DNA from: a virus
Taxonomy: Duplodnaviria; Heunggongvirae; Uroviricota; Caudoviricetes
Direction: 5' to 3' (one strand)
DNA length: 31,933 nt
IMG/VR virus record: IMGVR_UViG_3300028591_000112
Location: 1 to 31,933 of that record
The translations under genes were made by a program, and so were the position numbers. Shown in pieces: positions 534-25,022 of this stretch. Below the pieces are notes generated by a model. The model saw nothing but the letters and a program-made list of their open reading frames with translations, made no database searches and was not told the origin of the DNA. Positions within the stretch are counted from its first letter, which is position 1. Every line of letters starts with the position of its first letter.

Positions 534-962
534 TTAATATTTATTTGTCAATAGTTTTTCTATAATTTTATTAAATATTTCATTATCTTTTGGAATAGAC
601 CCACAAGAATAAATTGTTAAATTATCTTTTTTTTCTCCTAATACAAGATATTCAATTAACATTTCTTCTTTTGAAATTTGATTAAAAGATAAAACTTTTA
701 TTTCTTGATAAATATAATCATGACAATGAATATCGGCATAATAACATTTTTCAACACTAACATGCTTAAATGATTTAATAATACAAGGGTTATCACTAGC
801 AATTAAATCAAATTCTTGACTATGAATTTTTATTTTTTTAAATTTACTTTCTTGATTACTTCTTACAATAGGTTTATAATCATTAATTTCATTATTTACA
901 TTACTATAACTTTTTGCACTACTATTACTATTACTATGACTTACACTAATACTATTAAACAT
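534..962 (-). CDS. Early hypothetical protein, 142 aa, Ser/Asn-rich N-terminus
   Basis: ORF with own promoter and AAGAGG RBS. Confidence 0.8.
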   Translation of the reverse strand: MFNSISVSHSNSNSSAKSYSNVNNEINDYKPIVRSNQESKFKKIKIHSQEFDLIASDNPCIIKSFKHVSVEKCYYADIHCHDYIYQEIKVLSFNQISKEEMLIEYLVLGEKKDNLTIYSCGSIPKDNEIFNKIIEKLLTNKY

Positions 963-1001
963 TTTAATTACCTCTTTTCTTATTACATTATTATTATATC
1001 A

Positions 1002-1202
1002 TTAAAACTTTCTATTGTCAATAAGTTTTTTTATATCTTCAAAAGTTTTTTTGTAATCACTATCCCAATTAAAACATAATGCCGATATTTCCTCACATTG
1101 AATAGTCCAGTCCCAATTATCAAAACAAGTTAATGTAAAAGTATAATTAGGAAAAACACAATGTAAATAATTAAAAATTAATTCCAATTCTTTAATATTC
1201 AT
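1002..1202 (-). CDS. Early hypothetical protein, 66 aa
   Basis: ORF with own promoter and AAGGAG RBS. Confidence 0.8.
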   Translation of the reverse strand: MNIKELELIFNYLHCVFPNYTFTLTCFDNWDWTIQCEEISALCFNWDSDYKKTFEDIKKLIDNRKF

Positions 1203-1243
1203 TTTATCTTTCTCCTTACATTATTATTATATCAAATTAGGTT

Positions 1244-1435
1244 TTATTTGTCAATATTTTTTTTCAAATAATTGTTATAAAAAACATTTTTACTAACTAT
1301 TTCACTATTCCAAATATAAATATTATTTCCTTTTGATACTTTTGCAACAAAACAATTTTCTTGTATTTCCATTTCAAACTCAACTTTAATTCCTGCACTT
1401 TTAAATAGATTTTTTATATTCTCTTTATTATACAT
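1244..1435 (-). CDS. Early hypothetical protein, 63 aa
   Basis: ORF with own promoter and AAGAGG RBS. Confidence 0.8.
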   Translation of the reverse strand: MYNKENIKNLFKSAGIKVEFEMEIQENCFVAKVSKGNNIYIWNSEIVSKNVFYNNYLKKNIDK

Positions 1436-1530
1436 TTTGATTACCTCTTTTCTTTACATTATAATTATCTCATACTATAAGAAAAAAGTCAAGTATTTTT
1501 TGGGAATTTTTTAAATTTTTTTAAAAACAA

Positions 1531-1613
1531 TGCGGCAAGTGTAAAAAAGTGTAAAGTTTATTTATAACAAAAATGCGGCTGGCGTAAGGTAAAATGGTCG
1601 TGCGCCAGCCGCC
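1531..1613. repeat. Intergenic element U2: tandem TGTAAA plus hairpin GCGGCTGGCG-N18-CGCCAGCCGC
   Basis: TGTAAA 1540-1545 and 1550-1555; inverted repeat 1575-1584 / 1603-1612; preceded on the minus strand by small terminator GGCGGCAACGCC-TTTTT. Confidence 0.85.
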
Positions 1614-1634
1614 AAATAAAAAAGGCGTTGCCGC

Positions 1635-2021
1635 CTATTCTCCATAAATTTTAAAATATTCTTTTTCACTTAATATTTTTTCATCTTTTAAAAATTCACA
1701 AAAATCATTTAAAAGTTCTAATCTTATTGGGTTACTTGCAAAAATTGTTAAGCCTACATTATAACTAGTTTCTTTTCCAATAAAATCACAATCTATACCT
1801 AATATTTGTAATTCCTTTTGTCTTGAAGATAAATCATAATCTTTAAATTTTTCTTCATACATTGTTACACAAATATGAGGATTTCCTTCATTAATTTTTT
1901 TATTAATTTTTTCTATTAAATCATAATAAAAATTTCTTTGTCCTATTTGCTTATTTAAATAAGAATTATATCTTATTTTATTTTTAGTATTTTCTAATTT
2001 TTCAATATTAATTTTTTCCAT
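1635..2021 (-). CDS. Early hypothetical protein, about 128 aa
   Basis: ORF with own promoter; ATG at 2021 preferred over GTG at 2030. Confidence 0.8.
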   Translation of the reverse strand: MEKINIEKLENTKNKIRYNSYLNKQIGQRNFYYDLIEKINKKINEGNPHICVTMYEEKFKDYDLSSRQKELQILGIDCDFIGKETSYNVGLTIFASNPIRLELLNDFCEFLKDEKILSEKEYFKIYGE

Positions 2022-2087
2022 TTTTATCACTTTCCTTATTACATTATAAGTATATCATTATTTAATAATTATGTCAAGAGCAAAATA

Positions 2088-2537
2088 TTAAAAGTTTAAT
2101 ATTTTGCTCATTTTTTCAACATAATCAACATTTCTTAAATAGAAATCTATACCCCATTTAGTTGCTTCGTATTCTCCTTTAATAGTAAAATAACGAACAT
2201 CAAATTCCCAATCTTCTTCAGGAGTTGTGTCAGGTTTTAATTCCATTTCTTTTTGTAGTAAAATGTATTCTACATACATTTCCGCTTGTCCTATTGGAGT
2301 GCTAGTTTTATAATGTCCTATTTCATGTAGTAAGTGAGCAAACCACCAATTAATATTAGCACATTGCGGAAACTCTTGTTGATACCATTTAGTATAAGAT
2401 TTTTCTTCTTTTGTTCCTATACTAATTAGATTATTTTTTCTAAACCACATATTTTTTTTAAATGATACCTTTAAATTACTATCAATGCTTTTTACTATTG
2501 TTTTAATTAAGATTTTTTCTTTTCTTGTATATTCCAT
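2088..2537 (-). CDS. Putative Zn metallopeptidase (HExxH; ImmA/IrrE-like), 149 aa
   Basis: Motif FAHLLHEIGHY plus downstream E-x-E-A; own promoter and RBS. Confidence 0.7.
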   Translation of the reverse strand: MEYTRKEKILIKTIVKSIDSNLKVSFKKNMWFRKNNLISIGTKEEKSYTKWYQQEFPQCANINWWFAHLLHEIGHYKTSTPIGQAEMYVEYILLQKEMELKPDTTPEEDWEFDVRYFTIKGEYEATKWGIDFYLRNVDYVEKMSKILNF

Positions 2538-2640
2538 AATACAACCTCTTTCCTATTACAATTATATTATACTATTATTTAATAAAAAAGTCAATAGATT
2601 TTAGGAAAAAATTAAAAAAATAATAGAGTAAATATTAAAA

Positions 2641-2714
2641 TGTAAAAAAGTGTAAAGTAGTTAAATAAATAAAAAACGTGTGGTTTGCAAAGGGACTGCC
2701 GCAAACCACACGCC
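2641..2714. repeat. Intergenic element U3: tandem TGTAAA plus hairpin CGTGTGGTTTGC-N12-GCAAACCACACG
   Basis: TGTAAA 2641-2646 and 2651-2656; perfect 12-bp inverted repeat 2677-2688 / 2701-2712. Confidence 0.85.
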
Positions 2715-2717
2715 AAT

Positions 2718-2988
2718 TAAAAAGAGTTGACACTTGGTTTGTCAACTTCTTTCCTATCTCTATTTAACTAGTATTTTTTAACGAGATAGCCCTATTTTTC
2801 CCCTTTAAACGCTCAAGAAATAAGGAAAACTCAATATACTTCTTTAAGGTAAAAGTTCCCCGAGTTTCAAGATTATTCACCAGTTATGTTTCTTTACTCT
2901 GAACTCAACATAAAGGATAGAGATTACCAAGTTCCCTATCAAAAGTCTATAAGCAATTTTATAAACTTTTGATAGGGACAAACCCTTA
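2718..2988 (-). ncRNA. Candidate structured ncRNA, copy 2 (about 265 nt), downstream of a 50-aa basic ORF
   Basis: Long hairpin TCCCTATCAAAAGT/ACTTTTGATAGGGA, then CTTGGT (2926-2931) complementary to terminator loop AACCAAG (2733-2739); same layout as 306-516. Confidence 0.7.
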
Positions 2989-3138
2989 AGCATATTTTAA
3001 TGCTCTTGGGTTTGCATTACGACCATGTAATTTTTTATTAGTCTTACCCTTTCTTTTTAGATTTGCTGCAGTTCTCATAAATTGAGCAGCATTTTTGTCA
3101 ACAACAATTTTGTTTGTGATAGGTTTTCTTTTTGCCAT
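2986..3138 (-). CDS. Small very basic protein, 50 aa (MAKRKPITNKIVVDKNAAQFMRTAANLKRKGKTNKKLHGRNANPRALKYA)
   Basis: Manually translated, absent from the ORF track; own promoter (3194-3199) and AAAGGAAAG RBS. Confidence 0.8.
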   Translation of the reverse strand: MAKRKPITNKIVVDKNAAQFMRTAANLKRKGKTNKKLHGRNANPRALKYA

Positions 3139-3181
3139 AAATACCACTTTCCTTTCTTTATTACATTTATATTATAGCAAA

Positions 3182-3427
3182 TTATTGAATATTTGTCAAT
3201 GCTTTTTTATAATTTTTTTCAAAATTCTTTATTAATAATATTTCACTTAACATTTTGTTAAGTTCTTCTTTTGTATGGACGCCATCAATTCTTTTTCTTA
3301 AAGTTGTAGCATAATTTAATAATTCTTCAAAAGGACAATTTTTTCCAATTATTCTTCTAATAGAATATCTTAATCTAACTGATATTTTATCACTTTCTAA
3401 ATAATTTTCTTTTAATGTTAATTTCAT
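3182..3427 (-). CDS. Early hypothetical protein, 81 aa
   Basis: ORF with own promoter and AAAGGTG RBS. Confidence 0.8.
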   Translation of the reverse strand: MKLTLKENYLESDKISVRLRYSIRRIIGKNCPFEELLNYATTLRKRIDGVHTKEELNKMLSEILLIKNFEKNYKKALTNIQ

Positions 3428-3472
3428 AATTAATCACCTTTCCTTTATTACATTATAATTATAACATAGTTA

Positions 3473-3670
3473 TTAATTATTGTCAATAGTTAAATTACAT
3501 TTTTTTAAAACTTCTTCTAAACTTTCATTATTATAAACCGGAATATTCCATTGATACCAATTACGATAACCCATAGCATGAAATTCATAAATTGTTCTTT
3601 TAAAAATATTATCATAATAAACTCGTTCTAATTCAAAAACTCTTTTTGTTTCATTATCTATTACTTTCAT
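3473..3670 (-). CDS. Early hypothetical protein, about 65 aa
   Basis: ORF with own promoter; ATG at 3670. Confidence 0.8.
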   Translation of the reverse strand: MKVIDNETKRVFELERVYYDNIFKRTIYEFHAMGYRNWYQWNIPVYNNESLEEVLKKCNLTIDNN

Positions 3671-3756
3671 TTCTATCACTTCCTTACATTATAATTATAT
3701 CATTATTAAGTTTTTTTGTCAATAAATTTTTGTATTTTTTTAAATAATTTTAGGAA

Positions 3757-3884
3757 TGTCAACTTTACATGTAAAGATCAGCTTGCCATTGGTTTTTTCC
3801 CAAAAGTATGTTTAATTAATATAATGCGGCGCGGTTCCCATATTACATCTGACCGCGGGCCGCCGCATTGTAAAGTTATGTAAA
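3757..3884. repeat. Intergenic element U4: bulged GC hairpin with TGTAAA repeats and palindrome CTTTACATGTAAAG
   Basis: Arms 3823-3835 and 3852-3869; TGTAAA 3869-3874 and 3879-3884; palindrome 3763-3776. Confidence 0.8.
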
Positions 3885-3892
3885 TAAAAGAA

Positions 3893-4117
3893 CTACTCAT
3901 TATCAAGTAGTTCATTTGCATAATCAATAATGTCTTGATTAATAAAACTTGTTAAAGTATCATTATCATAATACCAAGTCATTACTTTTTTCATAAGTTC
4001 ATTATTGATTTCAGTAGCGCCTAGTTCATAAGCAAGTAATGCGCAATAAAGTTCTATAATATCACTAGGTGCGCACTCTCTATTAAGACAATTAAGTAAG
4101 TCTTGAGCATCCCACAT
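3893..4117 (-). CDS. Small acidic hypothetical protein, 74 aa
   Basis: AAAGGAG RBS; second gene of a two-gene unit; terminator hairpin overlaps its 3' end. Confidence 0.8.
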   Translation of the reverse strand: MWDAQDLLNCLNRECAPSDIIELYCALLAYELGATEINNELMKKVMTWYYDNDTLTSFINQDIIDYANELLDNE

Positions 4118-4131
4118 AATTATACTCCTTT

Positions 4132-4323
4132 CTAATTAAAATAACCAAAACCAACAGTTGCATAGTCAGTTAAAGTAACACCAACAACACAAGCAATATT
4201 TTTGTGTGCCTTTTCATTTATTTTTTGCATAATAGCAAGAGCATGTTTTTGAAATCTTGTTTCAAAATTACCTCCAAGTCTTTTGCCATTAACAATAACA
4301 GTATAAATATAATTTTTTCTCAT
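4132..4323 (-). CDS. Early hypothetical protein, 63 aa
   Basis: ORF with own promoter and AAGAGG RBS. Confidence 0.8.
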   Translation of the reverse strand: MRKNYIYTVIVNGKRLGGNFETRFQKHALAIMQKINEKAHKNIACVVGVTLTDYATVGFGYFN

Positions 4324-4397
4324 AATAATTACCTCTTTCCTTATTACATTTATATTATATCATTTTAATATTTACTTGTCAATAGTTTTTTGAAAAA

Positions 4398-4589
4398 TTA
4401 TCTAAATAATTTTCCCCATTTATAAAGTATTTTTAGTATAACTAAATTAATAATTATAGTAGCAAATACAATTTTGTTATAAGTTGGATTTCCTAATGTA
4501 TCAAGAAATGCACCTACACTTAATGTATCAAAAATTACTATCCCAATTAATGTATTTTCTAACCAAGTTTTTAAATATCTTTTTTTCAT
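4398..4589 (-). CDS. Small two-TM membrane protein, 63 aa
   Basis: Basic N-terminus and two hydrophobic segments; resembles 5462-5674. Confidence 0.8.
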   Translation of the reverse strand: MKKRYLKTWLENTLIGIVIFDTLSVGAFLDTLGNPTYNKIVFATIIINLVILKILYKWGKLFR

Positions 4590-4693
4590 TTAAATTACCT
4601 CTTTCCTTATTACACTTATATTATATCACTATACCAAAAGCAAGTCAATAGGTTTTTGTGATTTTTTTAATATTTTTTTACATTTGACATTTA

Positions 4694-4806
4694 ATGCGGA
4701 AAAAGTGTAAAGTTAATCAACCTCCTAAAATGCGGCGCGCAAGGTAGTTTATGTCTGTCAGCGCGCCGCCGCATTTTGTCAATTAATTGTAAAGCATTGC
4801 CGCATT
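4694..4806. repeat. Intergenic element U5: bulged hairpin AAAATGCGGCGCGC-N20-GCGCGCCGCCGCATTTT with TGT(A/C)AA repeats
   Basis: Arms 4727-4740 and 4761-4777; TGTAAA 4706-4711; TGTCAA-N5-TGTAAA 4777-4793. Confidence 0.85.
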
Positions 4807-4816
4807 TAAAAAGAGA

Positions 4817-5053
4817 CTAATCTCTAGTTAAGTAGTTGTGTATGTCTCTTTCAAAGTCTAATCTACTTAATTCTCTTGTAGTCTCTCTTAAATAATAACA
4901 AGTATGATTTTCTATGAAATCTCTACCAAGAACAAGATTTTTGTCTTTATAGTCCTCGTTTTTTCTTTCTCTTGCTTCAGTAGCAATTATATCACTTGGA
5001 CCTTCAATAATCTCTCCTGATACATAATCATAAAATAGTGCACTTTTTTTCAT
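4817..5053 (-). CDS. Early hypothetical protein, 78 aa
   Basis: ORF with own promoter and RBS. Confidence 0.8.
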   Translation of the reverse strand: MKKSALFYDYVSGEIIEGPSDIIATEARERKNEDYKDKNLVLGRDFIENHTCYYLRETTRELSRLDFERDIHNYLTRD

Positions 5054-5152
5054 AACTCATTACCTCTTTCTTTATTACAATTATATTATATCAAATTTTT
5101 ATTTATTTGTCAACAACTTTTTATTATTTTTTTATTTTGAAGAATAGGATTT

Positions 5153-5410
5153 TTAGTCCCACTCTTCAAAATCAATTGAAGTAACTTTAAAATCATCATT
5201 GAAATATACACAAGTATGGTCTCCCCAATAACCACCTATGTAAATCCAATCACCTTCAAAACTATATTCTTCAGGTTGTATTTTACATTTTTCTATAAAA
5301 TCTAATATACTTTCTAATGTTTCATCTTCGCCAAAATCAAATTGAATATTTTTTTCTTTTAAAACTTTTACACACTCTTCAAAACTTAAATCTTTTAAAT
5401 AATCATACAT
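5153..5410 (-). CDS. Small highly acidic early protein, 85 aa
   Basis: ORF with own promoter; D/E-rich. Confidence 0.8.
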   Translation of the reverse strand: MYDYLKDLSFEECVKVLKEKNIQFDFGEDETLESILDFIEKCKIQPEEYSFEGDWIYIGGYWGDHTCVYFNDDFKVTSIDFEEWD

Positions 5411-5461
5411 AGTTTTTCAACTCTCTTTCTTTATTACATTATTATTATATCATTTAAATAA

Positions 5462-5674
5462 TTATTTGTCAATGTTTTTTGTATCAAAAACATTAGAATA
5501 TTTGTATAGTATTAATGTAGTTATTACCATTATACCAACATTAACTAGGAAGAAAATAAAGTATTCTTTAGTCCAATTACTTTCTATTGTTGTTGCAATT
5601 AACATAAATGCTAAACAATCAATCATAAATAAAACTTTTACTATACTTTCTTTTAAAACTAATCTTCTTTTCAT
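5462..5674 (-). CDS. Small two-TM membrane protein, 70 aa
   Basis: Basic N-terminus and two hydrophobic segments; own promoter. Confidence 0.8.
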   Translation of the reverse strand: MKRRLVLKESIVKVLFMIDCLAFMLIATTIESNWTKEYFIFFLVNVGIMVITTLILYKYSNVFDTKNIDK

Positions 5675-5829
5675 TTGAATTTCCTTCTTTCTTTATCTTA
5701 CATTTATATTATATCATTAATTGTTTTGCTAATCAATAGTTTTTGATTAATTTTTTGTTTGTTTACACATTTATTTTTAGGAGTTTTTTGTTTTAGTCCT
5801 TTTTTGCCAGTCAAGATAAAAAAGTACCG

Positions 5830-5902
5830 AAGTGTCAAATAAGTGTAAAGTCCGGACTTTTTTGGCGTGAAGCGGAAATGCCTTAATAAAGTATTGCCGC
5901 AA
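5830..5902. repeat. Degenerate intergenic element U6
   Basis: TGTCAA-N5-TGTAAA 5833-5849; GCGG/CCGC cluster; ATTGCCGCA shared with U5; hairpin weak. Confidence 0.55.
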
Positions 5903-5944
5903 ATTCTCAAGAAAAAATTATATTAATTTTTAATAATGCAAAAT

Positions 5945-5980
5945 AAAAACAACAAGCAAATTTATTATTTTGCTTGTTGT
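5945..5980 (-). terminator. Intrinsic terminator
   Basis: ACAACAAGCAAA / TTTGCTTGTTGT stem followed by a T-tract. Confidence 0.8.
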
Positions 5981-6141
5981 AAAGTTTTGATTAACTTAAT
6001 TGAATAACCAATTATAAGAACAAAATTATTATATTTATTATTTTGATTTGCAATTAGTTCATCTCTTTTTTTATCTATCTCAATATAACTTTTTGCATAA
6101 CAAATAATTTCCTTTGTAACTTTATCTTCAATGTAATACAT
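5965..6141 (-). CDS. Early hypothetical protein, 58 aa (MYYIEDKVTKEIICYAKSY...)
   Basis: Manually translated; own promoter (6197-6202) and GAGG RBS. Confidence 0.75.
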   Translation of the reverse strand: MYYIEDKVTKEIICYAKSYIEIDKKRDELIANQNNKYNNFVLIIGYSIKLIKTLQQAK

Positions 6142-6209
6142 AATTCATTACCTCTTTCCTTTATTACATTATTATTATATCATTAATTAGTCTTTTTGTC
6201 AACTAGTTT

Positions 6210-6344
6210 TTAATCAATTGGTTTAATTTCTAGATACTCTAATTTAAAACCTCTTCTCTCAAGTCTTTCTCTTTCTTCAACTGCTTGAGAATAAGTTTTA
6301 AAACTATTTAAATAACTACCTTTGTATAATAATTGATATTTCAT
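6210..6344 (-). CDS. Early hypothetical protein, 44 aa (MKYQLLYKGSYLNSFKTYSQAVEERERLERRGF...)
   Basis: Manually translated; own promoter (6398-6403) and AAGAGG RBS. Confidence 0.75.
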   Translation of the reverse strand: MKYQLLYKGSYLNSFKTYSQAVEERERLERRGFKLEYLEIKPID

Positions 6345-6796: not shown

Positions 6797-7051
6797 TTAT
6801 TCTTCTATATCTCTCCACTCATAATTTTTACAATATTCTTCTTCATAAGTATCATATGTTGTTGTTATACTAAATATTCTTTCTCTAGTAACAACTCTTT
6901 TACCATATTCAACACAAACAAATTCTTGACCTTTATGAGCATCTTCCGCAGTTTTTATCCCACTCAATAAATAAAAACAAAATAAAATTGCTAAACAAAT
7001 TTCAATAATTATTAAAAACATTCCAATAATAAAATCTTTATTACTTGTCAT
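6797..7051 (-). CDS. Membrane-anchored hypothetical protein, 84 aa
   Basis: N-terminal TM segment; last gene of the leftward operon. Confidence 0.75.
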   Translation of the reverse strand: MTSNKDFIIGMFLIIIEICLAILFCFYLLSGIKTAEDAHKGQEFVCVEYGKRVVTRERIFSITTTYDTYEEEYCKNYEWRDIEE

Positions 7052-7277
7052 TTTTATTTGTTCCTTTCAATAGCGCCAACCAATAATTAACAACACTAAT
7101 GTCAATAACATCATCAATATTTTTATGTTTATCTATATAATCTTGCATTTCTGCGGCAACCCTATTTCTTCTATTAATTAATTTTTTATTTCTTTTTCTT
7201 AATTTTTTTAATTGCTTTATGAATAACCACATTTTATGCGCGCTTACTTTCACTCTTATTATATTATTACCTCTCAT
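7041..7277 (-). CDS. Hypothetical protein, about 78 aa
   Basis: ORF overlapping both neighbours; start uncertain. Confidence 0.65.
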   Translation of the reverse strand: MRGNNIIRVKVSAHKMWLFIKQLKKLRKRNKKLINRRNRVAAEMQDYIDKHKNIDDVIDISVVNYWLALLKGTNKNDK

Positions 7278-7656
7278 CTTTATCACTCATTTCATTTATC
7301 TTATCTATTATTGCATTTATTTTCATGGCATAAAGTATTCCCGCCTCAGATTTATCTATATCTTGCCAAAATTTATTTTTAACACAAAGTTCTTTATCAT
7401 CATTTTCATCTAATATTATTTTTTCAAGTGCGGGAGCCGCCGGTTCTAGAACCTCAACCACGTCATTTAAGCATTGATCGAGAACAAAATCAAGCCCAAG
7501 CGTACTAGTATATTCGCCATATTTGTTATATCTTTTATATATTCTATCCTTTTCATCTCATGTATAGATATAATCATCTACCCCATTTTTATATCTAATT
7601 TTTTTAGGCATTTCCGCATTAAATGCAGAATCTACAAGTAAAGTTATTATTTTCAT
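7267..7656 (-). CDS. Hypothetical protein, 129 aa under code 4
   Basis: ATG 7656 with GGAG RBS; one in-frame TGA (7558-7560) joins it to track ORF 7267-7461. Confidence 0.8.
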
Positions 7657-8057
7657 TTTTTATTTTCTCCTTTATTTAATACATTTATTATTTCATTGAT
7701 TTTATCAACAATTAAATCGGTATCAGTTTTACCTGTCCATACATCACATTTACTTAATACTAACTTTTCTATCTTCTTATTAAATAAAGAACTACTATAG
7801 TCACTTTGTGGTAATTCACAATTAGTGTTATATTCTTCTATTATTTCTACTTCATCATTTAATTTAATTGCATCTTGTAAAGGATAATCATCACTTACAT
7901 TTTTTAAACAATCTAATTCATTTTCTTCATCGGCATCATAATAAAAATCCCTATAACAACTTTCACTTATCCCTCACCACGTTATTCTAAATTTGGTTTT
8001 ATCTTTTATTTTCTTATCTCTAATTAAACCTAATAATTCATATATTGTTATTTTCAT
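7647..8057 (-). CDS. Hypothetical protein, about 136 aa under code 4; paralogue of 9606-9980
   Basis: MKITIYELLGLIRD...; internal TGG-TGA; motif YYDADEENELDCLKNVSDDYPL. Confidence 0.8.
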
Positions 8058-8254
8058 ATCTTATACTCCATTTCACTAATTGAAGTTAGTTCTGCTGATT
8101 TGGTACTATCTTTTATTTCCCAAGTTGAATATCCACCATCAGAAGCGTCATAAATAAATTCTGTACCATCTTCTAATAATAGAAAAATACCAAAACCATC
8201 TACTTTTATATCCTTAATTTTTTTTCCCACTAAATCATTAAATGTTTCTTCCAT
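8048..8254 (-). CDS. Hypothetical protein, 66-68 aa
   Basis: Ends TGA-AAA-TAA overlapping the next ATG. Confidence 0.75.
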
Positions 8255-8543
8255 CTATATCACTTCTTAATATACTTAATAATTCATCATAAATTCCAGG
8301 GTATTCAAAGAAACCTTGGTCATCAAATTCGATAATTCTTTCTTGTATAATGTTTATTACTTCTTTTATAATATTATTTAATCTTTCTATTTCTTTTTGT
8401 TGATGTTGTATTTTCCCTATAAAATGTGGTAAATCTAAACTTTCTATATTAATAAATGATGATAAATCATTTTGTTCCATATAAACTATATAATCATCTA
8501 TAATTCCATTTGTATAATCATTATATATTGGCTTTAATTTCAT
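8238..8543 (-). CDS. Hypothetical protein, 101 aa
   Basis: TAATG coupling and GGAG RBS; shares KEIERLNNII with 9079-9381. Confidence 0.8.
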   Translation of the reverse strand: MKLKPIYNDYTNGIIDDYIVYMEQNDLSSFINIESLDLPHFIGKIQHQQKEIERLNNIIKEVINIIQERIIEFDDQGFFEYPGIYDELLSILRSDIDGRNI

Positions 8544-9079
8544 TATTTATCTTCTCCTAAAATGTTTTTAATTTCCTTTTGCAATACTTTTGAAAGGTTA
8601 ATATTATGTTTTATTGCTTCCTCTTTTAAATACTTAGGCATTGTTATTATTGTATTGACACTTGTAGTATCTCCTTCTCTTAATTCATTAATCATACCCA
8701 AGATATATGCGTCCTCTAATATAGAATTATAATATGCTAAATCTTTATCTTTATCCTTTGAATTCATCCATTCTTCTAAACGATTATTTAAATAATTTTC
8801 TATTTTTTGCAATATTTCGATATCACTCATTACTTTATCTTCTCCTTTAAGTATGTTTAATAAATCCCCTAATTCTCTTATACTAATTGGTGCTTCGCCA
8901 AATCTGCAATTTTTAAAATCGGTATTATAACTTTCTAGATATTCTATTGCTTTATTTACTTTAGATTTATAATCTTCTTTTTCATTATACATTTCTTGTA
9001 TTAAAGTAACTAACTCTTTTAATTCAAGATTATAAGTACTATTTTTAAATATTTCAAATATTTCATTTACTTCTTCCAT
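8543..9079 (-). CDS. Hypothetical protein, 178 aa; apparent two-gene fusion with a C-terminal ribbon-helix-helix (HicB/CcdA-like) segment
   Basis: Internal RBS and ATG at 8830; C-terminal NTIITMPKYLKEEAIKHNINLSKVLQKEI. Confidence 0.75.
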   Translation of the reverse strand: MEEVNEIFEIFKNSTYNLELKELVTLIQEMYNEKEDYKSKVNKAIEYLESYNTDFKNCRFGEAPISIRELGDLLNILKGEDKVMSDIEILQKIENYLNNRLEEWMNSKDKDKDLAYYNSILEDAYILGMINELREGDTTSVNTIITMPKYLKEEAIKHNINLSKVLQKEIKNILGEDK

Positions 9080-9381
9080 TATTTATCTTCTCCTTTTATC
9101 TCTCTAAGTATTAGAAAAAATTTTCTTGTTAATTTTGTAGTTGCTTCATCATAATATTTAAAAATTCCTTCATTACCATTACAATCAATATATAATTCAT
9201 TTTTCACCTCAATTATCCAATCAAAACTATCTAATTTATTTATGATATTATTTAATCTTTCTATTTCTTTATCTTTTTGTAAATTGTCTAATGATAATGC
9301 TTGAATTATTCTTGCTTGTCCTGTTGCTATTTCACCAATACTTTCTATATGGTCATCACTTACATAATCTCTCATATTCAT
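9079..9381 (-). CDS. Hypothetical protein, 100 aa
   Basis: ORF in a tightly coupled operon. Confidence 0.8.
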   Translation of the reverse strand: MNMRDYVSDDHIESIGEIATGQARIIQALSLDNLQKDKEIERLNNIINKLDSFDWIIEVKNELYIDCNGNEGIFKYYDEATTKLTRKFFLILREIKGEDK

Positions 9382-9385
9382 TTTT

Positions 9386-9604
9386 TTACTCGTCTTTCCA
9401 TTTTAAATATTTTATTATTTGATTAATTGCGGCAATAATTTGCTCATTTTCTACTTTTTTCCAACCTTTTACACAAACATATCCATTTTCATTAACGTAA
9501 GTATTCAATTGTTTTTCTTCAGGTAATAAATCAGGTAATTTTGGTTTATCTCCTTTTGTTAAACTTTTTATATAATTATTTATTGTTTCATCTATATCAA
9601 ACAT
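9386..9604 (-). CDS. Hypothetical protein, 72 aa (MFDIDETINNY...)
   Basis: ATG 9604 with GAGGAG RBS; track start at 9682 is probably too long. Confidence 0.75.
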   Translation of the reverse strand: MFDIDETINNYIKSLTKGDKPKLPDLLPEEKQLNTYVNENGYVCVKGWKKVENEQIIAAINQIIKYLKWKDE

Positions 9605-9605
9605 A

Positions 9606-9980
9606 TTAATTGTCAACTCCTCATGTAATTTTTGGATACTTTTGTTCATGTTGTGGCGGAAAGCTAGTAGTATGTATAACAATTCTTTGAGGTGGATTAT
9701 CTTTTATTTTTTCATATTCTTTTTCTATATCTAATAGTCTTTTATATTCTGCAATAGGAACTGCAATGCGGTCAGTGTTTATTTCAACCTCATCATCAAG
9801 GCGGAGACCCTCTCCTTTAATAGGTAAATTATCATCTACATTTTTTAAGCAACATAATTGGTCTTCTTCATTTTCATCATAATATATATCTTTTACTAAA
9901 TCGCCATAATACCATTTAAAATAAGTATTATTTTCTATTTCTCCTAAAGCAATTTTATTTCATAAATCTATCATCATCAT
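9606..9980 (-). CDS. Hypothetical protein, about 124 aa under code 4; paralogue of 7647-8057
   Basis: MMMIDLW(TGA)NKIALGE...; GGAGG RBS; motif YYDENEEDQLCCLKNVDDNLPI; two TGA codons. Confidence 0.75.
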
Positions 9981-10308
9981 GAGCTCTATTCGCCTCCACA
10001 TAAAACATTAATTCTTTTTGTTCTTTTTCTAAAAGCGGCAATATTTTTTTACGATTACACCATACTGAACGCCAACTAAAATAATCTTTAAATTCTAATT
10101 CAAATCTTTTATCATATCTATGTTTAAAAGTTATTGGAAGAAAATTATCTTCATCTAAATTTCCATAAATAATATATCTATGTCCTAAAAAATATTCTAT
10201 ACATTTAATACGGTAATAATCTTCTTTATCTAATGCCATAAAAGCGGCAATATATACTACATTTATTATTAATAAAATTATAATAATATAATATAAATAT
10301 TCTTTCAT
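9955..10308 (-). CDS. Membrane-anchored hypothetical protein, 117 aa
   Basis: N-terminal TM segment; GGAG RBS. Confidence 0.8.
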   Translation of the reverse strand: MKEYLYYIIIILLIINVVYIAAFMALDKEDYYRIKCIEYFLGHRYIIYGNLDEDNFLPITFKHRYDKRFELEFKDYFSWRSVWCNRKKILPLLEKEQKELMFYVEANRAHDDDRFMK

Positions 10309-10320
10309 TATTTATTCTCC

Positions 10321-10587
10321 TTATTCTTCATATCAAAATTCCTTTACACTAATTTTACCTCCATAGGTTCTATCACAAATTAGTTTTCCACTATCAACCC
10401 AACATTTATCAGCTACTCCTAAATTATTATCTCAATCTCTATAATAATAAATGCGGGATTCAGCTCGAAGAATGTAAAAGCTAGCTATCGCCGCAATAAT
10501 ACCTAGTACGATAACAAATTTCAACCACGGTCTTTTATGATTAAGTAATGCTATATCTAAAATAATTTTATATACTGTAGTTTTCAT
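10321..10587 (-). CDS. Membrane-anchored hypothetical protein, 88 aa under code 4
   Basis: Manually translated MKTTVYKIILD...; two in-frame TGA; fills the gap between neighbours. Confidence 0.75.
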
Positions 10588-10720
10588 TATTGAACTCTTC
10601 CTCTTGTTCCCATTCTTCTATACGTTCATCGCTTAAGCGAGCTGCGGCCAATAAGAATAATATTAACACAAAGAAAATAACTCCACAAATAGCTCCCAAT
10701 AAAAATATTCCCCAATTCAT
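10568..10720 (-). CDS. Small single-TM protein, 50 aa
   Basis: ATG 10720 with AAAGGAAG RBS; hydrophobic N-terminus and acidic tail. Confidence 0.75.
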   Translation of the reverse strand: MNWGIFLLGAICGVIFFVLILFLLAAARLSDERIEEWEQEEEFNNENYSI

Positions 10721-10857: not shown

Positions 10858-11937
10858 ATGGATATTAAAAAATTAGATTATTCTATTAAAGATGCGGAAA
10901 CCCGCAAACAAATAGTAGAAGAAATTATTACACAAATTCCGCCTAATCAATTAACAGAAAAATATATAGAAATTTTATCTAATTATATTGTATTAGCTAT
11001 GGATAAAGAAGAAAAAAAGAAAAAAGAAATTATTACTGACAATAGATTAATCACAATTAATAAAAGAGAAACTTCTTATCAAGGATTGGCTATGAAATTT
11101 GAAAATGGCGAAGATGGAATTTATAATATTGCAATAGATAATGATAAAAATGTCCTATTAACACCTAAAGTATCCATTACTCCTAAAGATGTTGCGGAAA
11201 TGCCCGCGCTTAGTGATTTAAAATGCGCTATAGATACTGTTAAACAACAAGAAAAAAATGCTAAAGGTAAAAATAAATATAAATTAAAAAAACAATTAAT
11301 AGAAATGTATCAAGAACAATATACAATTAAAAATGATATAAGACAACCAATGGCATTTTCTAATACAATAAAATCATTTGCAAGAGCGGATTTTAATGAA
11401 GAAATTATAATTAATGAAAATGGTCTACCTGAAAGTAAAGGATTATGTTCGTTATTTAATCCTAAACATATTTCAGTGCTATTGTGTAATTACTCAATGT
11501 TAAAACAAGAGAGTTGAGATAAGTTTGATGGAGATTGTTATTATTTAATGTTAGATTTAGAAAATATTGTTGATGGAGCATTAAAAGATAAATATCCGCT
11601 ATACTATGATTTATTAATTTATAAAATAGATGGTAGAAGTAATGCGGAAATTCAGTTTCTATTAGAATTAAAATATGGAATTAAACATTCTATTGAGTAT
11701 ATTTCTGCATTATGAAGAAATAAAATTCCTAAATTAATTGCGGAATATGAAACAAAAGAATATTTAAATTGATATTATACTTATAAAGAAAAAGGAAAAT
11801 GGAAAAAATGTTCACGTTGCGGAGAAATAAAATTAGCTCATAATTTATATTTTTCAAAAAATAAAACTTCTAAAGATGGTTGATATTCTATTTGTAAAGA
11901 ATGTCGAAATAAAAAATCTAAAGGAGATGAGAAATAA
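10858..11937 (+). CDS. 359-aa protein (code 4) with HTH-like region and C-terminal CxxC...CxxC zinc finger; possible late regulator
   Basis: Four in-frame TGA (11515, 11713, 11770, 11881); CSRC...CKEC; TAATG coupling to the next gene. Confidence 0.85.
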
Positions 11938-13157
11938 TGGCAACAGCTACAAGAGAAAAATATTATTGTCAAAAATGCGGCAAATGGATGGGAGAAGACC
12001 AATTTTTTACTTACCCAGATGGTTCTAAAACTGAATTATGTAAAGAATGTTTGACAATGCATATTGATAATTTTGATGAGTCAACTTATGTATGATTAAT
12101 TCAAAAAATGAATATACCTTTTATTCCTCAAGAATGAAATAAATTAAGAGATAGAATTTATGAGCAAAATCCAGAAAAATTGACAAATAAATCTGTTTTT
12201 GGTAGATACTTATCAAAAATGAAATTAAATCAATGAAAAGATCCTGAAACGGGTCGAAGATATACTTGAGAAGATACTGAATGATTACAAGAGAAATATA
12301 ATAAATTAGAAGAAGAACATAAAAAAGAGGCGGAAGAAAGAGAAGCTAAAGCAAAAGAACAATTTGAAAAAGGGGAAATTTCTGAAGCTGAATTTAAAAC
12401 AATGCTTAGCGCAACTACTCAACATGCGGCGGAGCCAGTTGAGCCAATGGGGCAAAAAGGTGGAGCTCCTACTCAAAATGGGCTAGATGAATCTCAATTT
12501 ATGAGTGAGGATGAACTAATTAATACTGCCGCAGATTTAACTCAAGAAGATAAAATCTATTTAGCCATGAAATGAGGTAGATTATATAAACCAAGTGAAT
12601 GGGTTGAATTAGAAAAAATATATAATGATATGACTGAGTCTTTTGATATACAAGACGCGGATACAATTAATACATTAATTTTAATTTGTAAAACTAATTT
12701 AAAAATGAATCAAGCTCTTGATATTGGAGATTTAGATGGATACCAAAAATTATCTAGGGTTTCAGATGGATTACGTAAATCCGCAAAATTTACTGCAGCT
12801 CAAAATAAAGAAGATAAAAATGATTTTGTTGATTCTGTTGGTGAACTAGTTACTATTTGTGAAAAAGATGGTTATATTCCTAGATATGCTACTGATATTC
12901 CTCAAGATAAAGTAGATTTAACTTTAAAAGATATGACGGATTATTTAAATAAATTAGTTACTCAAGATTTGGGTTTTGGTCAACAAATTGAAGATGCTTT
13001 AAAGAAAATTCAAATACAAAAAGAAATGAATGAAAATGAATCAATTGTTGCTAACGCAGATGAACTAGAAAATGAAGATTATGAAGCATTTATTGAAGAA
13101 ATGGAAAACCAAAAAAATCAAGATTTAGAAATGTATAATGAGGAGAGTGATTCATAA
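11937..13157 (+). CDS. 406-aa protein (code 4) with N-terminal Zn ribbon; putative terminase small subunit
   Basis: CQKC...CKEC; several TGA-Trp; in frame with track ORF 12630-13157; TAATG-coupled to TerL; function inferred from position. Confidence 0.7.
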
Positions 13158-14917
13158 TGGCATTGGCGGATATTATGAATCTCTCTAAAAATAAAACACT
13201 TTCTTTAAAAAAGGTTGGTATTTCAGAAGAGAGAATTCAAGCACAGAAAGAAACTATAAGACAGTATATTGCCTTTTGAAGAGAATATCCTGATATTTTT
13301 GTTGAGTTCTTATGCGGAAGTAATCCAGAGAATTTTCATTTATTTTTTTATCAAAGGGTATTTTTAAGAGCTGTTATGCGTCATAGATATGCATATGCTA
13401 CGTTTCCTCGTGCTTATTCTAAATCATTTTTATCTGTTTTAGTTTTAATGTTAAGATGTATTCTTTATCCAGGTTCACATTTGTTCGTTACAACAGGCGG
13501 AAAAGAACAAGCTGCGGGAATTGCTAGAGAAAAAGCGGAAGAACTATGTAAATTAATACCTGGATTAAAAAATGAAATAGATTGAACAAGAGGTCAAACT
13601 AAAGCTAGTAAAAATATGGTTGAGTATAAATTTAAAAATGGTAGTAGGTTAGATATTATTGCTGCACAACAAAGTTCACGTGGTAAACGTGCTACTGGTG
13701 GATTAATGGAAGAGTGTATTTTAATTGACCAAACTTTATTAAATGAAGTTATTATTCCTACAATGAACGTAGATAGACGTTTGGCGGATGGTAGTAGAAT
13801 TGAAGATGAGACTGTAAATAAATCTCAAATATATGTTACTACCGCAGGATGGAAGAATAGTTTTGCATATAGTAAGCTAATTCAACTATTAATACAACAA
13901 ATTATAGAGCCTTCTGAGTCTATTGTTCTTGGCGGAACTTGAAGAGTTCCTGTTATGGAAAAATTATTAAAAAAGAGTTTCATAGAAGAATTAAAATTAG
14001 ATGGAACATATAATGATAGTTCATTTGCTAGAGAATATGAATCAGAGTGAAGCGGCGATGCAGAAAATGCATTTTTCTCTGCAGAAAGAATTGATAAACA
14101 TAGAATATTATTACAACCTGAATATGAATTTAGCGGAAGAAGTAGCAAATCTGCTTATTATATACTAGGAGTTGACGTAGGTCGTTTAAAATGTACTACT
14201 GAAATTTGCGTATTTAAAGTAACTCCGCAAGTTCAAGGTTCTGCCCTTAAAACTTTAGTTAATTTATTTAGTTATGAAGCAGAAGATTTTGAGCAACAGG
14301 CAATTAAAATTAAACAATTATTTTATAAATTTAAATGTCGTTGTGCGGTAATCGATGCCAATGGTTTAGGTATTGGTTTAGTTGATTTTATGACTAAAAC
14401 ACAAATAGATCCAGAAACAGGAGAAGAATTGCGTCCTTTTGGCGTTGAAGGTGGAACATCAGAAGATGTTGTTGAAACCTATAAAAAAATTAAGGGAGAC
14501 GGAGTTGAAAATGATGCTATGTATTTAATGAAAGCTAATTTACCAATTAATACAGAAGCTCATAGTTATGTTCAAACTCAATTATTTAGTGGTAAAATAA
14601 AATTTTTAATTGATGAAAGTCAAGCAAAAGTAAAACTAATGGCTACTAAACGCGGACAACAAATGAATAGTACAGAAAGAGGAGAATATTTAATGCCTTT
14701 TACTTTAACTACTATTTTAAGAGAACAATTATTAAATTTAGTAGAAGAAAATGAAGGTTCAAATATTATTTTAAAACAGGCTAATAGAGCAATTCCTAAA
14801 GATAAATTTTCAGCATTTGAATATGGATTATACTATATTAAACAGGAAGAAGATAGAAAAAAGAAAAGAAAGAAGAGAAGTATTGGAGACATGATTTTCT
14901 TCACAAATTCAAAATAA
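13157..14917 (+). CDS. terL: Terminase large subunit, 586 aa (code 4)
   Basis: Walker A-like FPRAYSKS, RGKRA, Walker B-like GLMEE, coupling motif YVTTAG, RNase H-like YILGVDVG and KDKFSA; four TGA join three track ORFs in frame. Confidence 0.92.
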
Positions 14918-18970: not shown

Positions 18971-20005
18971 ATGTTAGTAAAAAGTGATTTAATACAATTA
19001 GCTAAAACTGTAGCTAACGCAAATCCTGCTTCTCAAGTTGCATATTCTTATAAAGATACAAATTTAAGCTATTCAGCTTTAAATGAAACATTAAGAAAAG
19101 AATTAAATGAATTAGCAGGTACTAATACATTATTCAGAGCTAACGCTCCTGTAGTATTCGAAATTATCGAAGAAACTATCAATGATGTATTACCTAAAAA
19201 AGTTGAAGAACAATATGGAATGTTTGCTGAAGTAAGAACTTTTGCTCAAGGTGACAGACCTAGATTCGTTCAAAAAATTACTACTGCTGCAAAAAGAAGA
19301 GCTAAACAATTCGTTACTAAAGTTGGTTTAGCTGGCGTTTATGAAGTATTCAAATTAGATGGAAAATATGTAGATGTTAATACTGAAGCATGGGGCGGAG
19401 CTGCTCAAATCGGATTTGAAGAATTCTTAGATGGTAGAGTTGATTTTGCAGACTTAACTGAAATTATTATTGAAGGATTAGATGAAGCTGTTTATAAAGA
19501 AATAGCTAAAGCATTAATTGCAGCTGTAACTAGATTACAAGATGCAAATAAATCTACTCAAACTGAATTCGTAGAAGCAGAAATGGATAGATTAATCCAA
19601 ATCGCAGATTCTTATGGTAAAGCTACAATTTATTGTACTTATGAATTTGCTGCAACTATGGTTCCAGCTGAAGGTTGGAGATCAGATGAACATAGAAATG
19701 AAAGATGGAATAAAGGTTACATTGCTAACTACAAAGGACACAATGTTATCGTATTAGATCAATCATTCGTAGATGAAACAAATACTACTAAAGTTATTGA
19801 TCCATCTTATGCATATATTATCCCAACTGAAAATAGTAAACCAGTTAAAATCGCATTTGAAGGCGGTACTTTAGTTAAAGAAGTTGACAATCAAGATTGG
19901 TCAAGAGAAATGAGATTCTATAAAAAATTCGGTGTTGCTACATTAATTACAAACAATGTCTGTGTTTATAGAAATACTAGTTTAACTATTGAAAGTACAA
20001 TTTAA
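18971..20005 (+). CDS. Major capsid protein, 344 aa
   Basis: Size, position, biased codon usage, downstream terminator. Confidence 0.85.
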   Translation: MLVKSDLIQLAKTVANANPASQVAYSYKDTNLSYSALNETLRKELNELAGTNTLFRANAPVVFEIIEETINDVLPKKVEEQYGMFAEVRTFAQGDRPRFVQKITTAAKRRAKQFVTKVGLAGVYEVFKLDGKYVDVNTEAWGGAAQIGFEEFLDGRVDFADLTEIIIEGLDEAVYKEIAKALIAAVTRLQDANKSTQTEFVEAEMDRLIQIADSYGKATIYCTYEFAATMVPAEGWRSDEHRNERWNKGYIANYKGHNVIVLDQSFVDETNTTKVIDPSYAYIIPTENSKPVKIAFEGGTLVKEVDNQDWSREMRFYKKFGVATLITNNVCVYRNTSLTIESTI

Positions 20006-24149: not shown

Positions 24150-25022
24150 ATGAAGTTCGGAATCCGTGAGATTGCAAACGTTGTTTTTAAAGCTAAAAAT
24201 GATGTTAAAATTGGAAATACAACTTTCAAAGCTGGACAACCAGTTTTATATATCGATAGTGCAAAAACTTCTACATTAGAAGGCGCTTCTACTACTGTTT
24301 ATGCAACAGGTGGAAGAGGAAATACTAGATTAATATCTTGGGAAGGTGAAAAAACTTTAACATTTACTGTTGAAGATGCTTTATTATCACCTATTGGTTT
24401 CTCAATCTTATCTGGTGCTGGATTAATCAAAAATAGTACTGAAACTGTTCACGTACATTTAACTTCAAATGCTATTGTAGCTAATGGACAAATTGATTTA
24501 TCTACAGCATTAGACAGCGGAGAATCTATTGATTCAACTGCTCCAATTTATATTGCTGAAACTGAATCTGATGGTTCTTTAACTGGAACAACTATTACTC
24601 ATACTGCTGCATCAGCCCAAGCTTTAACTGTTCCATCAACTGCTAATGGAAAAACAGTATTTGTTGATTTCTATATCACTAAAAATGGTGCAAATGTATC
24701 TGAATTACAAATCGATGCTGAAAACTTCGCAGGATATTACTATGTTGAAGCTAGCACATTAGTTAGAGATACTAATGGTAAAGATTTACCTTATGAAATC
24801 ACATTACCTAATGTTAAAATTCAATCTAGCTTCACATTCTCTATGGCTGCAACTGGAGATCCTTCAACATTTACATTCACTATGGATGCAATGCCTGGAT
24901 ATACTTATTTTGATCAATCAAGAAAAGTATTATGCGTAATGCAATTAGTTGAAGATGCTAAAATAAATGAAAAGAATATTGATTCAGTAATGCAACACCC
25001 TGGAGATGCAGAATCTGTTTAA
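24150..25022 (+). CDS. Major tail tube protein, 290 aa
   Basis: Thr/Ser/beta-rich; strong RBS; highly-expressed codon bias; terminator downstream; no sheath gene nearby. Confidence 0.75.
   Translation: MKFGIREIANVVFKAKNDVKIGNTTFKAGQPVLYIDSAKTSTLEGASTTVYATGGRGNTRLISWEGEKTLTFTVEDALLSPIGFSILSGAGLIKNSTETVHVHLTSNAIVANGQIDLSTALDSGESIDSTAPIYIAETESDGSLTGTTITHTAASAQALTVPSTANGKTVFVDFYITKNGANVSELQIDAENFAGYYYVEASTLVRDTNGKDLPYEITLPNVKIQSSFTFSMAATGDPSTFTFTMDAMPGYTYFDQSRKVLCVMQLVEDAKINEKNIDSVMQHPGDAESV

Follow-up and report, generated by a model that had tools for sequence, protein, structure and literature searches.

Genome Organisation and the Promoter Array

The window analysed here is a 31,933 nt stretch of DNA, bases 1–31,933 of the Caudoviricetes record IMGVR_UViG_3300028591_000112, which is a complete genome of 131,615 bases with direct terminal repeats (a genome of ~131.5 kb) and 28% GC. 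Its capsid protein is closest, among named relatives, to that of phAss-1 (52% identity) and those of Enterococcus and Bacillus phages (26–41%). A sequencing run labelled as sheep gut contains 98% of the words sampled from this DNA, which may have come from it. Near the left end lies an array of small genes, most preceded by their own promoter, that does not use TGA, a codon that elsewhere in this genome aligns with tryptophan (Trp). This report concerns that array and a tRNA gene outside the window, split by an intron, whose product is predicted to read UGA. Coordinates beyond the window are those of the whole genome (G000:C1), with which the window shares its numbering.

534–6344, minus strand: promoter array of 16 short open reading frames (ORFs; 1,279 amino acids), likely early, most with their own sigma70-type promoter

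The first 6.5 kb contain 13 strict promoters of the form TTGA(C/T)-N16-19-TA(T/A)AAT, and a repeat finder returned a 13-copy family in the same region; the early status of the array genes is deduced from these consensus promoters. All Trp codons of the 16 ORFs are TGG, as a preliminary description of this DNA had noted, although the count is 20 rather than 19, with 0 TGA, and Trp is present in just 8 of the ORFs. The stop codons are TAA (12) and TAG (4). That no array gene ends in TGA, also noted earlier, is true but weak as evidence, as standard-code relatives seldom end genes in TGA either (from 2/73 to 22/94 of their long genes). The array extends over the genome origin (127–131.5 kb), where eight more ORFs carry 0 TGA and 8 TGG, compared with 170 TGA and 248 TGG (about 40% of Trp as TGA) in the remaining 120 genes. 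A Fisher test of TGA:TGG by gene class over the whole genome, as had been proposed, gives p = 6.1 × 10⁻⁵ for the 16 window ORFs against the rest and p = 9.6 × 10⁻⁷ for all 24 ORFs, and resampling at the level of genes gives p = 1.1 × 10⁻³ and p = 3 × 10⁻⁵, respectively. Codons for Lys, Glu and Gln end in A at 86–91% in every gene class, so the lack of TGA in the array is not explained by composition.

The gene set was produced with a custom script and hand curation, in which 24 candidate frames were discarded and 10 reinstated. Four of the discarded frames fall in 534–6344, and two of these have one TGA each: 3706–3921, which is without a Shine-Dalgarno site and overlaps 3893–4117, and 5086–5211, an alternative frame across 5153–5410. 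A frame of 49 amino acids with one TGA (2844–2993) was not selected by a second caller. None of the array ORFs matched a Pfam family, and 12 of the 16 were unmatched in 13 relatives, with a single match for one further gene. ORF 2088–2537 carries an HExxH motif, which we take to be metallopeptidase-like, with counterparts in 7 of 8 recoded relatives and a weak match in a standard-code relative. The array also contains, at 259–312, 1570–1623 and 2671–2724, related GC-rich hairpins with A runs behind them (repeat family D10), which are probably terminators.

Relatives were represented by a set of 43 contigs, 33 of them with at least five tRNAs, and by 80 related loci for alignment of the codes. 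As a general trait of the relatives, avoidance of TGA by the array is only partly shown: promoter-led small ORFs look TGA-poor in G001 (1 TGA:7 TGG), G002 (1:12), G006 (1:24) and G018 (1:11), and not TGA-poor in G003 (5:13), G004 (9:11) and G023 (5:12), the automated calling of such ORFs having produced spurious short TGA-rich frames.

TGA Codons Outside the Array

At the TGA positions of 14 window genes, the 80 related loci give 1,083 aligned cells, of which 719 are TGG and 148 TGA; others are 74 Tyr, 70 Phe, 42 Leu and 1 Ser, with 0 Gly and 0 Cys. These alignments show that TGA in this phage corresponds to Trp. Nineteen of the loci are TGA-recoded and 11 TAG-recoded, codes 11, 4 and 15 being mixed among them, and TGA-recoded and standard-code rows interleave in a quick capsid tree. 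The genome has no match to PF00472 (release factor) or PF00579 (class Ic synthetase, the family of tryptophanyl-tRNA synthetase, TrpRS).

6797–10720, minus strand: operon of 13 small ORFs adjoining the array, in which TGA is already in use (9 TGA, 18 TGG)
10858–14917, plus strand: three TGA-rich genes, the last a probable large terminase (14 TGA, 4 TGG)
18971–20005, plus strand: major capsid protein, late and TGA-free (0 TGA:4 TGG)
24150–25022, plus strand: probable tail tube, named by position, TGA-free (0:1)
27412–31933, plus strand: 5′ part of the tape measure gene (11 TGA, 2 TGG in the window; 22:7 in the whole gene)

The earlier figure of 11 TGA against 2 TGG for the tape measure gene matches the count within the window, and the TGA positions of the genes in 10858–14917 align with Trp in relatives. 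In the operon next to the array, genes 7647–8057 and 8048–8254 both terminate in TGA-AAA-TAA, with the TGA inside the start overlap of the next gene, and thus have near-equal ends under either code. Depletion of T after TGA (odds 0.61) was considered as a sign of competition with release factor 2 (RF2) and dropped, as much of it reflects avoidance of GATC (TGATC 13 vs TGGTC 109) and control codon pairs shift similarly. GATC is avoided genome-wide (86 observed vs 270 expected), and phage G669 has 0 against 225 expected.

A Probable Suppressor tRNA Gene Split by an Intron

ARAGORN reports 26 tRNAs in the genome, with Trp represented solely by a CCA anticodon. It missed a split tRNA with a UCA anticodon, which was found by visual reading of the tRNA cluster outside the window.

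105828–105856, plus strand: early-type promoter (11 of 12 consensus positions), ~450 bases upstream of the split tRNA
106277–106978, plus strand: split tRNA gene; exon 1 106277–106309, intron 106310–106914 (605 bases), exon 2 106915–106978
106336–106797: PD-(D/E)XK endonuclease ORF within the intron, TGA-free

No terminator-like site lies between the promoter and the split tRNA. Joining the exons in a script gives a 97-base tRNA with a UCA anticodon, identical to an intronless gene in locus L151. The exon boundaries are common to 8 of 8 endonuclease-bearing loci, the anticodon stem shows compensatory changes, and DNA run X2 contains an intronless allele with the flanks of this phage (joint 10309–10915 on L005). 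Read from the sequence, the intron has group I-type traits, namely a 5′ splice site after a U paired to a guide G, and a terminal G. The Rfam group I model gave no match at E ≤ 0.05 over L005 3000–19000, and the neighbouring tRNA-Leu intron was likewise missed.

Evidence from RNA consists of contigs, which show neither level nor timing. In RNA run X24, a 60-base contig (depth 15.6) joins the last base of the intron to the 5′ end, the junction that circularisation of an excised intron would create; such circles are described for introns after splicing (PMC13168695). The intron in this run is that of a close relative (16 differences in 599 bases), and the run also holds an intron contig ending at the 3′ splice site and both unspliced junctions. 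In run X8, one contig (depth 4.1, no differing letters) has exon 2, from its first base on, joined to a downstream CTT, which is read as mis-splicing. Another X8 contig, joining exon 1 to a variant exon 2, was not counted as splicing, as it may be the intronless gene of another phage.

Of the TGA-recoded contigs that have a tRNA cluster, 10 of 11 carry the suppressor tRNA, against 0 of 22 others; these 22 negatives were scored with a pattern that missed G018, and just five of them also by ARAGORN. The search pattern alone had found the gene in 9 of 43 contigs, and the tally stood at 8/10 vs 1/23 until G018 was shown to carry the tRNA and G005 proved to be weakly recoded. In G023, the sole recoded contig without the gene, the listed tRNA matches lie at the contig end. 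In a second phage group, the tRNA is present in recoded G669 and absent from its standard-code sister G670. The intron-split tRNA is the probable installer of UGA read-through, its reading of UGA being predicted, and given the early-type promoter before the gene, read-through probably begins early.

Several other features were seen in and around this cluster. The ribosome-binding site and start codon of the intron endonuclease can form a 13-pair helix with sequence adjoining the guide (106310–106750). An intronless paralogue of the suppressor tRNA at 105748–105821 (L005:9748–9821), detected only at a relaxed ARAGORN threshold, is decayed, with TTA at the anticodon position and broken stems. 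A second group I-type intron splits tRNA-Leu(UAA) at 107390–108255 and contains an HNH ORF with 2 TGA. A second PD-(D/E)XK ORF (110181–110606) lies directly after tRNA-Lys and is followed by an apparent stray tRNA 3′ half. The cluster has a partial match to OLE RNA at 110821–110970 (91 bits, model 438–593 of 616) and a match to transfer-messenger RNA at 109521–109967, names and coordinates being paired in the order listed. The anticodons of tRNA-Ser(ACT), 103855–103946, and tRNA-Ile(TAT), 111184–111259, are unusual.

A Second Anticodon Arm

In the suppressor tRNA, the variable region folds into a hairpin, with a loop that is a copy of the CCA anticodon loop of tRNA-Trp. In a set of 13 intronless genes, pairing holds in 96.6% of cells, and both partners vary in 4 of the 6 pairs of the extra arm; these values were reached by 0 of 500 shuffles, a control inflated by kinship and made on genes whose loop and closing bases were preset by the search pattern. 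When UCA tRNAs were collected via the intron, with no use of the CCA loop, the arm with that loop was present in 19 of 22 distinct genes (48 of 53 loci, some contigs having been fetched twice); the others are one long arm without a CCA loop and two short arms. The 34 distinct long-arm genes have 20 different stems, while G73 and nine bases running from the loop to the T stem are invariant in all 34. In the ordinary tRNA-Trp of the phage, the spacing from loop to T stem equals that of the second arm. The acceptor stem of the suppressor (A1-U72, G2-C71, G3-C70, G4-C69, G73) has Trp acceptor identity; in Bacillus subtilis, the Trp identity pairs are G2-C71, G3-C70 and G4-C69, together with G73 (PMC9976931), and the CCA anticodon serves TrpRS as a major identity element (PMC2965240). 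A 4-pair mechanism (PMC13092985) was excluded, as all 5 pairs of the anticodon stem are present in the ordinary tRNA-Trp(CCA) at 105177.

The likeliest role of the second hairpin, with roughly even chances of being right, is that of a charging handle for TrpRS. One tentative extension is a two-state adaptor, in which the CCA-loop hairpin would dock host TrpRS and the UCA arm would then go to the ribosome, so that charging identity and decoding would sit on separate anticodon arms of one molecule. On the same tentative footing, many phages may keep this switch behind a self-splicing intron, which would conceal it from tRNA-finding programs and might also delay it.

The hairpin could plausibly, if at less than even chances, have nothing to do with TrpRS, being instead the relic of a duplicated arm, a decoy for an anticodon nuclease, or a variable arm of the kind recognised by seryl-tRNA synthetase (SerRS). 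A long variable arm with G73 is indeed a SerRS signature (PMC9976931, PMC5389517), and the CCA loop is missing from one distinct gene of the long-arm kind. A handle may also be unneeded, as ordinary UCA suppressors are tryptophanylated in Escherichia coli according to work cited by Borges et al. (bioRxiv 10.1101/2021.08.26.457843). However, the loop is kept while the stems turn over, unlike the decay of a relic; TGA aligns with Trp, not Ser; and the acceptor stem bears the B. subtilis Trp identity pairs.

Proposed Order of Events and Timing of Read-Through

We consider it probable that the array is TGA-free as the phage, in a standard-code host, must first produce its own means of reading UGA, for which the intron-split tRNA is the predicted candidate. 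Shortly after entry, host polymerase would transcribe the tRNA from the early-type promoter, the intron would splice itself out of the precursor, and host TrpRS would charge the product, probably aided by the extra CCA-loop hairpin. The charged tRNA would then compete with host RF2. Under the strong A-ending bias, two costs would shape where TGA accumulates: it could not be tolerated in genes whose translation precedes maturation of the tRNA (the array and ORFs of the tRNA region), nor in genes for very abundant products (capsid, tail tube), suppression probably being incomplete. The outcome would be an ordering constraint that opens early, before replication, and no dedicated timer for late genes.

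Besides the way the negatives of the code tally were scored, several observations weigh against this sequence of events. The spliced junction of the phage's own tRNA is absent from the RNA contigs, in which unspliced junctions are present. Minimum free energy folding of the 97-mer is no stabler than that of shuffles (z = −0.53), and about 23 short-arm UCA tRNAs in other phages are without the extra hairpin, which is therefore not generally required. In the quick capsid tree the recoded relatives share ancestry, so that counts among them are not independent. The 39 loci in genome bins that hold relatives are spread across unrelated taxa, a noisy host signal, and no CRISPR (clustered regularly interspaced short palindromic repeat) spacer was found when 20 kb of the window were compared with 300 sampled genomes of the candidate host family (see below) and two centres, eight short matches that were inspected lying outside any repeat array. 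Finally, ten core replication genes that hold 10 TGA:39 TGG in this phage and 15:34 in G004 are nearly TGA-free in three of the four recoded relatives compared (0:51 in G002, 1:49 in G003 and 0:58 in G006), which suits the published late-gene model better.

The preliminary description had followed that model, with late genes becoming translatable only once the phage installs read-through. Its early/late pattern of TGA stands, as a known, Agate-type pattern, but control of late genes fits poorly here. TGA:TGG is 90:103 in virion and lysis genes and 56:77 in replication and metabolism genes (p = 0.43), which gives no support to TGA as a gate specific to late genes; the tRNA region has 7:35. Pfam-supported carriers of TGA include the pieces of Pol III alpha, RecJ, a RecD-like helicase, RNase H and NrdD/NrdG, and as replication genes carry TGA, DNA replication in this genome must come after the onset of read-through. 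TGA is missing from ligase, both gyrase subunits, DnaB, major capsid, tail tube and endolysin (0:7), and the holin has one. In the 19 recoded loci the major capsid gene has 1 TGA:62 TGG, vs 300:409 in 14 neighbouring genes, a comparison in which relatedness of the loci overstates the p value; the tail tube of 14 recoded relatives has 0:14. The recoding boundary shifts between lineages, with virion genes always within it and the array mostly outside.

A designed timer, which withholds read-through until late, possibly by slow or regulated splicing, and so delays the virion and lysis proteins, is unlikely. The TGA-free array, the replication genes of G002, G003 and G006, the holin with its one TGA, and the presence in RNA of unspliced as well as excised intron forms would all suit it. 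It is at odds with the TGA in the replication genes of this phage and G004, with an endolysin at 0:7 and a capsid at 0:4, and with a suppressor tRNA behind a near-consensus promoter; moreover, the intron is optional, being missing from a near-identical allele and most close relatives. Avoidance of TGA more likely reflects a lag together with incomplete suppression than a designed timer.

An Early-Array Peptide Considered as Installer

2986–3138, minus strand: basic peptide of 50 amino acids, the most conserved array gene (71–90% identity in relatives)

The preliminary description had suggested that the installer could lie in the early array, yet the candidate found is itself a tRNA and belongs to the tRNA cluster, and it is very unlikely that read-through is installed or boosted by an array protein such as an RF2 inhibitor. 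Among such proteins, the top candidate would be the 50 amino acid peptide. Its paralogue (107031–107270) lies directly behind the suppressor tRNA, with KGKTNKKL common to both, one or other occurs in 11 of 12 recoded contigs and in 0 of the 31 others of the set of 43 relatives, and 24 of 27 peptide loci have TGA at Trp sites. This strong first association was broken by G670, a standard-code phage (98% complete, 0 TGA in its 12 longest genes, no UCA tRNA found) that carries both paralogues. In addition, 15 contigs of other phage groups have the two-armed tRNA without a peptide match, and most array genes are, as noted, unmatched in relatives; the peptide is more likely to be a marker of phages with a common host. 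Both peptides also occur in a distant phage group. Of their 270 database relatives, the 120 listed include no functional name and no Pfam family, and the 50 amino acid peptide gave no lead in Pfam, PDB or Atlas. The pair is probably a host-takeover factor, and the array may still contain a helper protein.

Host and Its Code

The two closest relatives (74% and 71% capsid identity) bin in one family with genomes of ~1.1 Mb, titled Erysipelotrichaceae and Bacilli and presumably RF39; a member, G044, has 26–28% GC. Two further genomes of the 300 sampled family members hold related phage DNA. Of the two host checks proposed earlier, the spacer search gave nothing, and prfB was found above the cut-off in 94 of 101 candidate-family genomes; RF39 genomes examined by others mostly retain RF2 (PMC8629427). 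In G044, TGA is the stop of 5 among 62 long ORFs. G670 shares seven blocks of accessory genes with this phage at 73–78% nucleotide identity, and the phage endolysin (M23 and SH3) is of peptidoglycan type. A phosphoesterase gene, considered as one derived from the host, was too weak as a host marker (4/61 family genomes at 28–38% identity, 0/301 phylum genomes).

The mixed codes of the relatives, the prfB-bearing family and the gene sharing with G670 make it very likely that the host uses the standard code (code 11), so that the earlier proposal of a code 11 host with read-through supplied by the phage stands by inference. It is highly improbable that the host is itself a code 4 organism and the array's avoidance of TGA a codon bias of highly expressed genes: code 4 gut bacteria do exist (Mycoplasmatales and two Eggerthellaceae genera, PMC13695967), and capsid and tail tube avoid TGA as expression bias predicts, but codes 11, 4 and 15 interleave among the relatives, the suppressor tracks the code, prfB and TGA stops are present in the candidate family, and the endolysin is of peptidoglycan type.

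Comparison with Known Systems

Published work leaves the questions of how a code is installed without a synthetase of the phage's own, and why most recoded phages show no suppressor. The two-armed split tRNA partly answers the second, since ARAGORN misses the split form and calls the intronless form tRNA-Sec (label "SeC"); the first becomes directly testable with the 97-base RNA. Were the second loop a charging handle, aminoacylation identity would be split from decoding, which is relevant to tRNA biology and the design of suppressor tRNAs. Avoidance of TGA in the capsid gene across 19 recoded relatives argues for costly, incomplete suppression, which matters when adaptive timing is weighed against tolerated drift as the account of recoding.

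In its described features, the phage resembles the Agate clade of TGA/TAG-recoded gut phages (~127 kb, TGA = Trp; Borges et al., bioRxiv 10.1101/2021.08.26.457843). Common features are a genome of ~130 kb (131.5 here), TGA = Trp, relatives with codes 11, 4 and 15, recoded virion genes, a phage suppressor, and no release factor or synthetase gene found. A standard-code Firmicutes host is predicted for the clade; here binning, prfB and shared genes point in that direction, with no spacer found. In the Agate representative, replication genes are in the standard code, a feature that varies across clades according to the same preprint; here replication genes are recoded (56:77), while capsid and endolysin are not. 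The preprint reports suppressors in only 35% of code 4 genomes and expects non-canonical tRNAs; an intron-split suppressor and a second anticodon arm are not described in the text of it that was available. A literature search, with most subscription journals outside its coverage, found no phage opal suppressor described as either split by an intron or two-armed.

The intron is like bacterial group I introns of anticodon loops (Anabaena tRNA-Leu, Azoarcus tRNA-Ile, and tRNA-fMet with an endonuclease; PMC3984707, PMC13168695) in its insertion inside the anticodon, terminal G, CUU/GAG guide pairing, endonuclease ORF and post-splicing circle. It differs in that the gene it interrupts encodes a suppressor tRNA of a phage and in having no Rfam group I match; phage introns known in 2014 were all in protein-coding genes, by the account in PMC3984707. 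With tRNA-Sec and the allo-/selC* tRNAs (PMC5389517), the suppressor shares a UCA anticodon, a long variable arm and G73. Unlike tRNA-Sec, in which the acceptor branch is extended and the D stem long, it has a 7-pair acceptor of Trp type, a 5-pair T stem and a 4-pair D stem with covariation, and unlike both groups its variable-arm loop is fixed as a CCA anticodon loop and TGA falls at Trp positions, with Cys in none of the 1,083 cells.

The named relative phAss-1, of the proposed Phassvirus (PMC10607447), is also a recoded gut phage (136 kb) with suppressor tRNAs and no synthetase, although it reads TAG as Gln. The early versus late pattern of TGA is already published.

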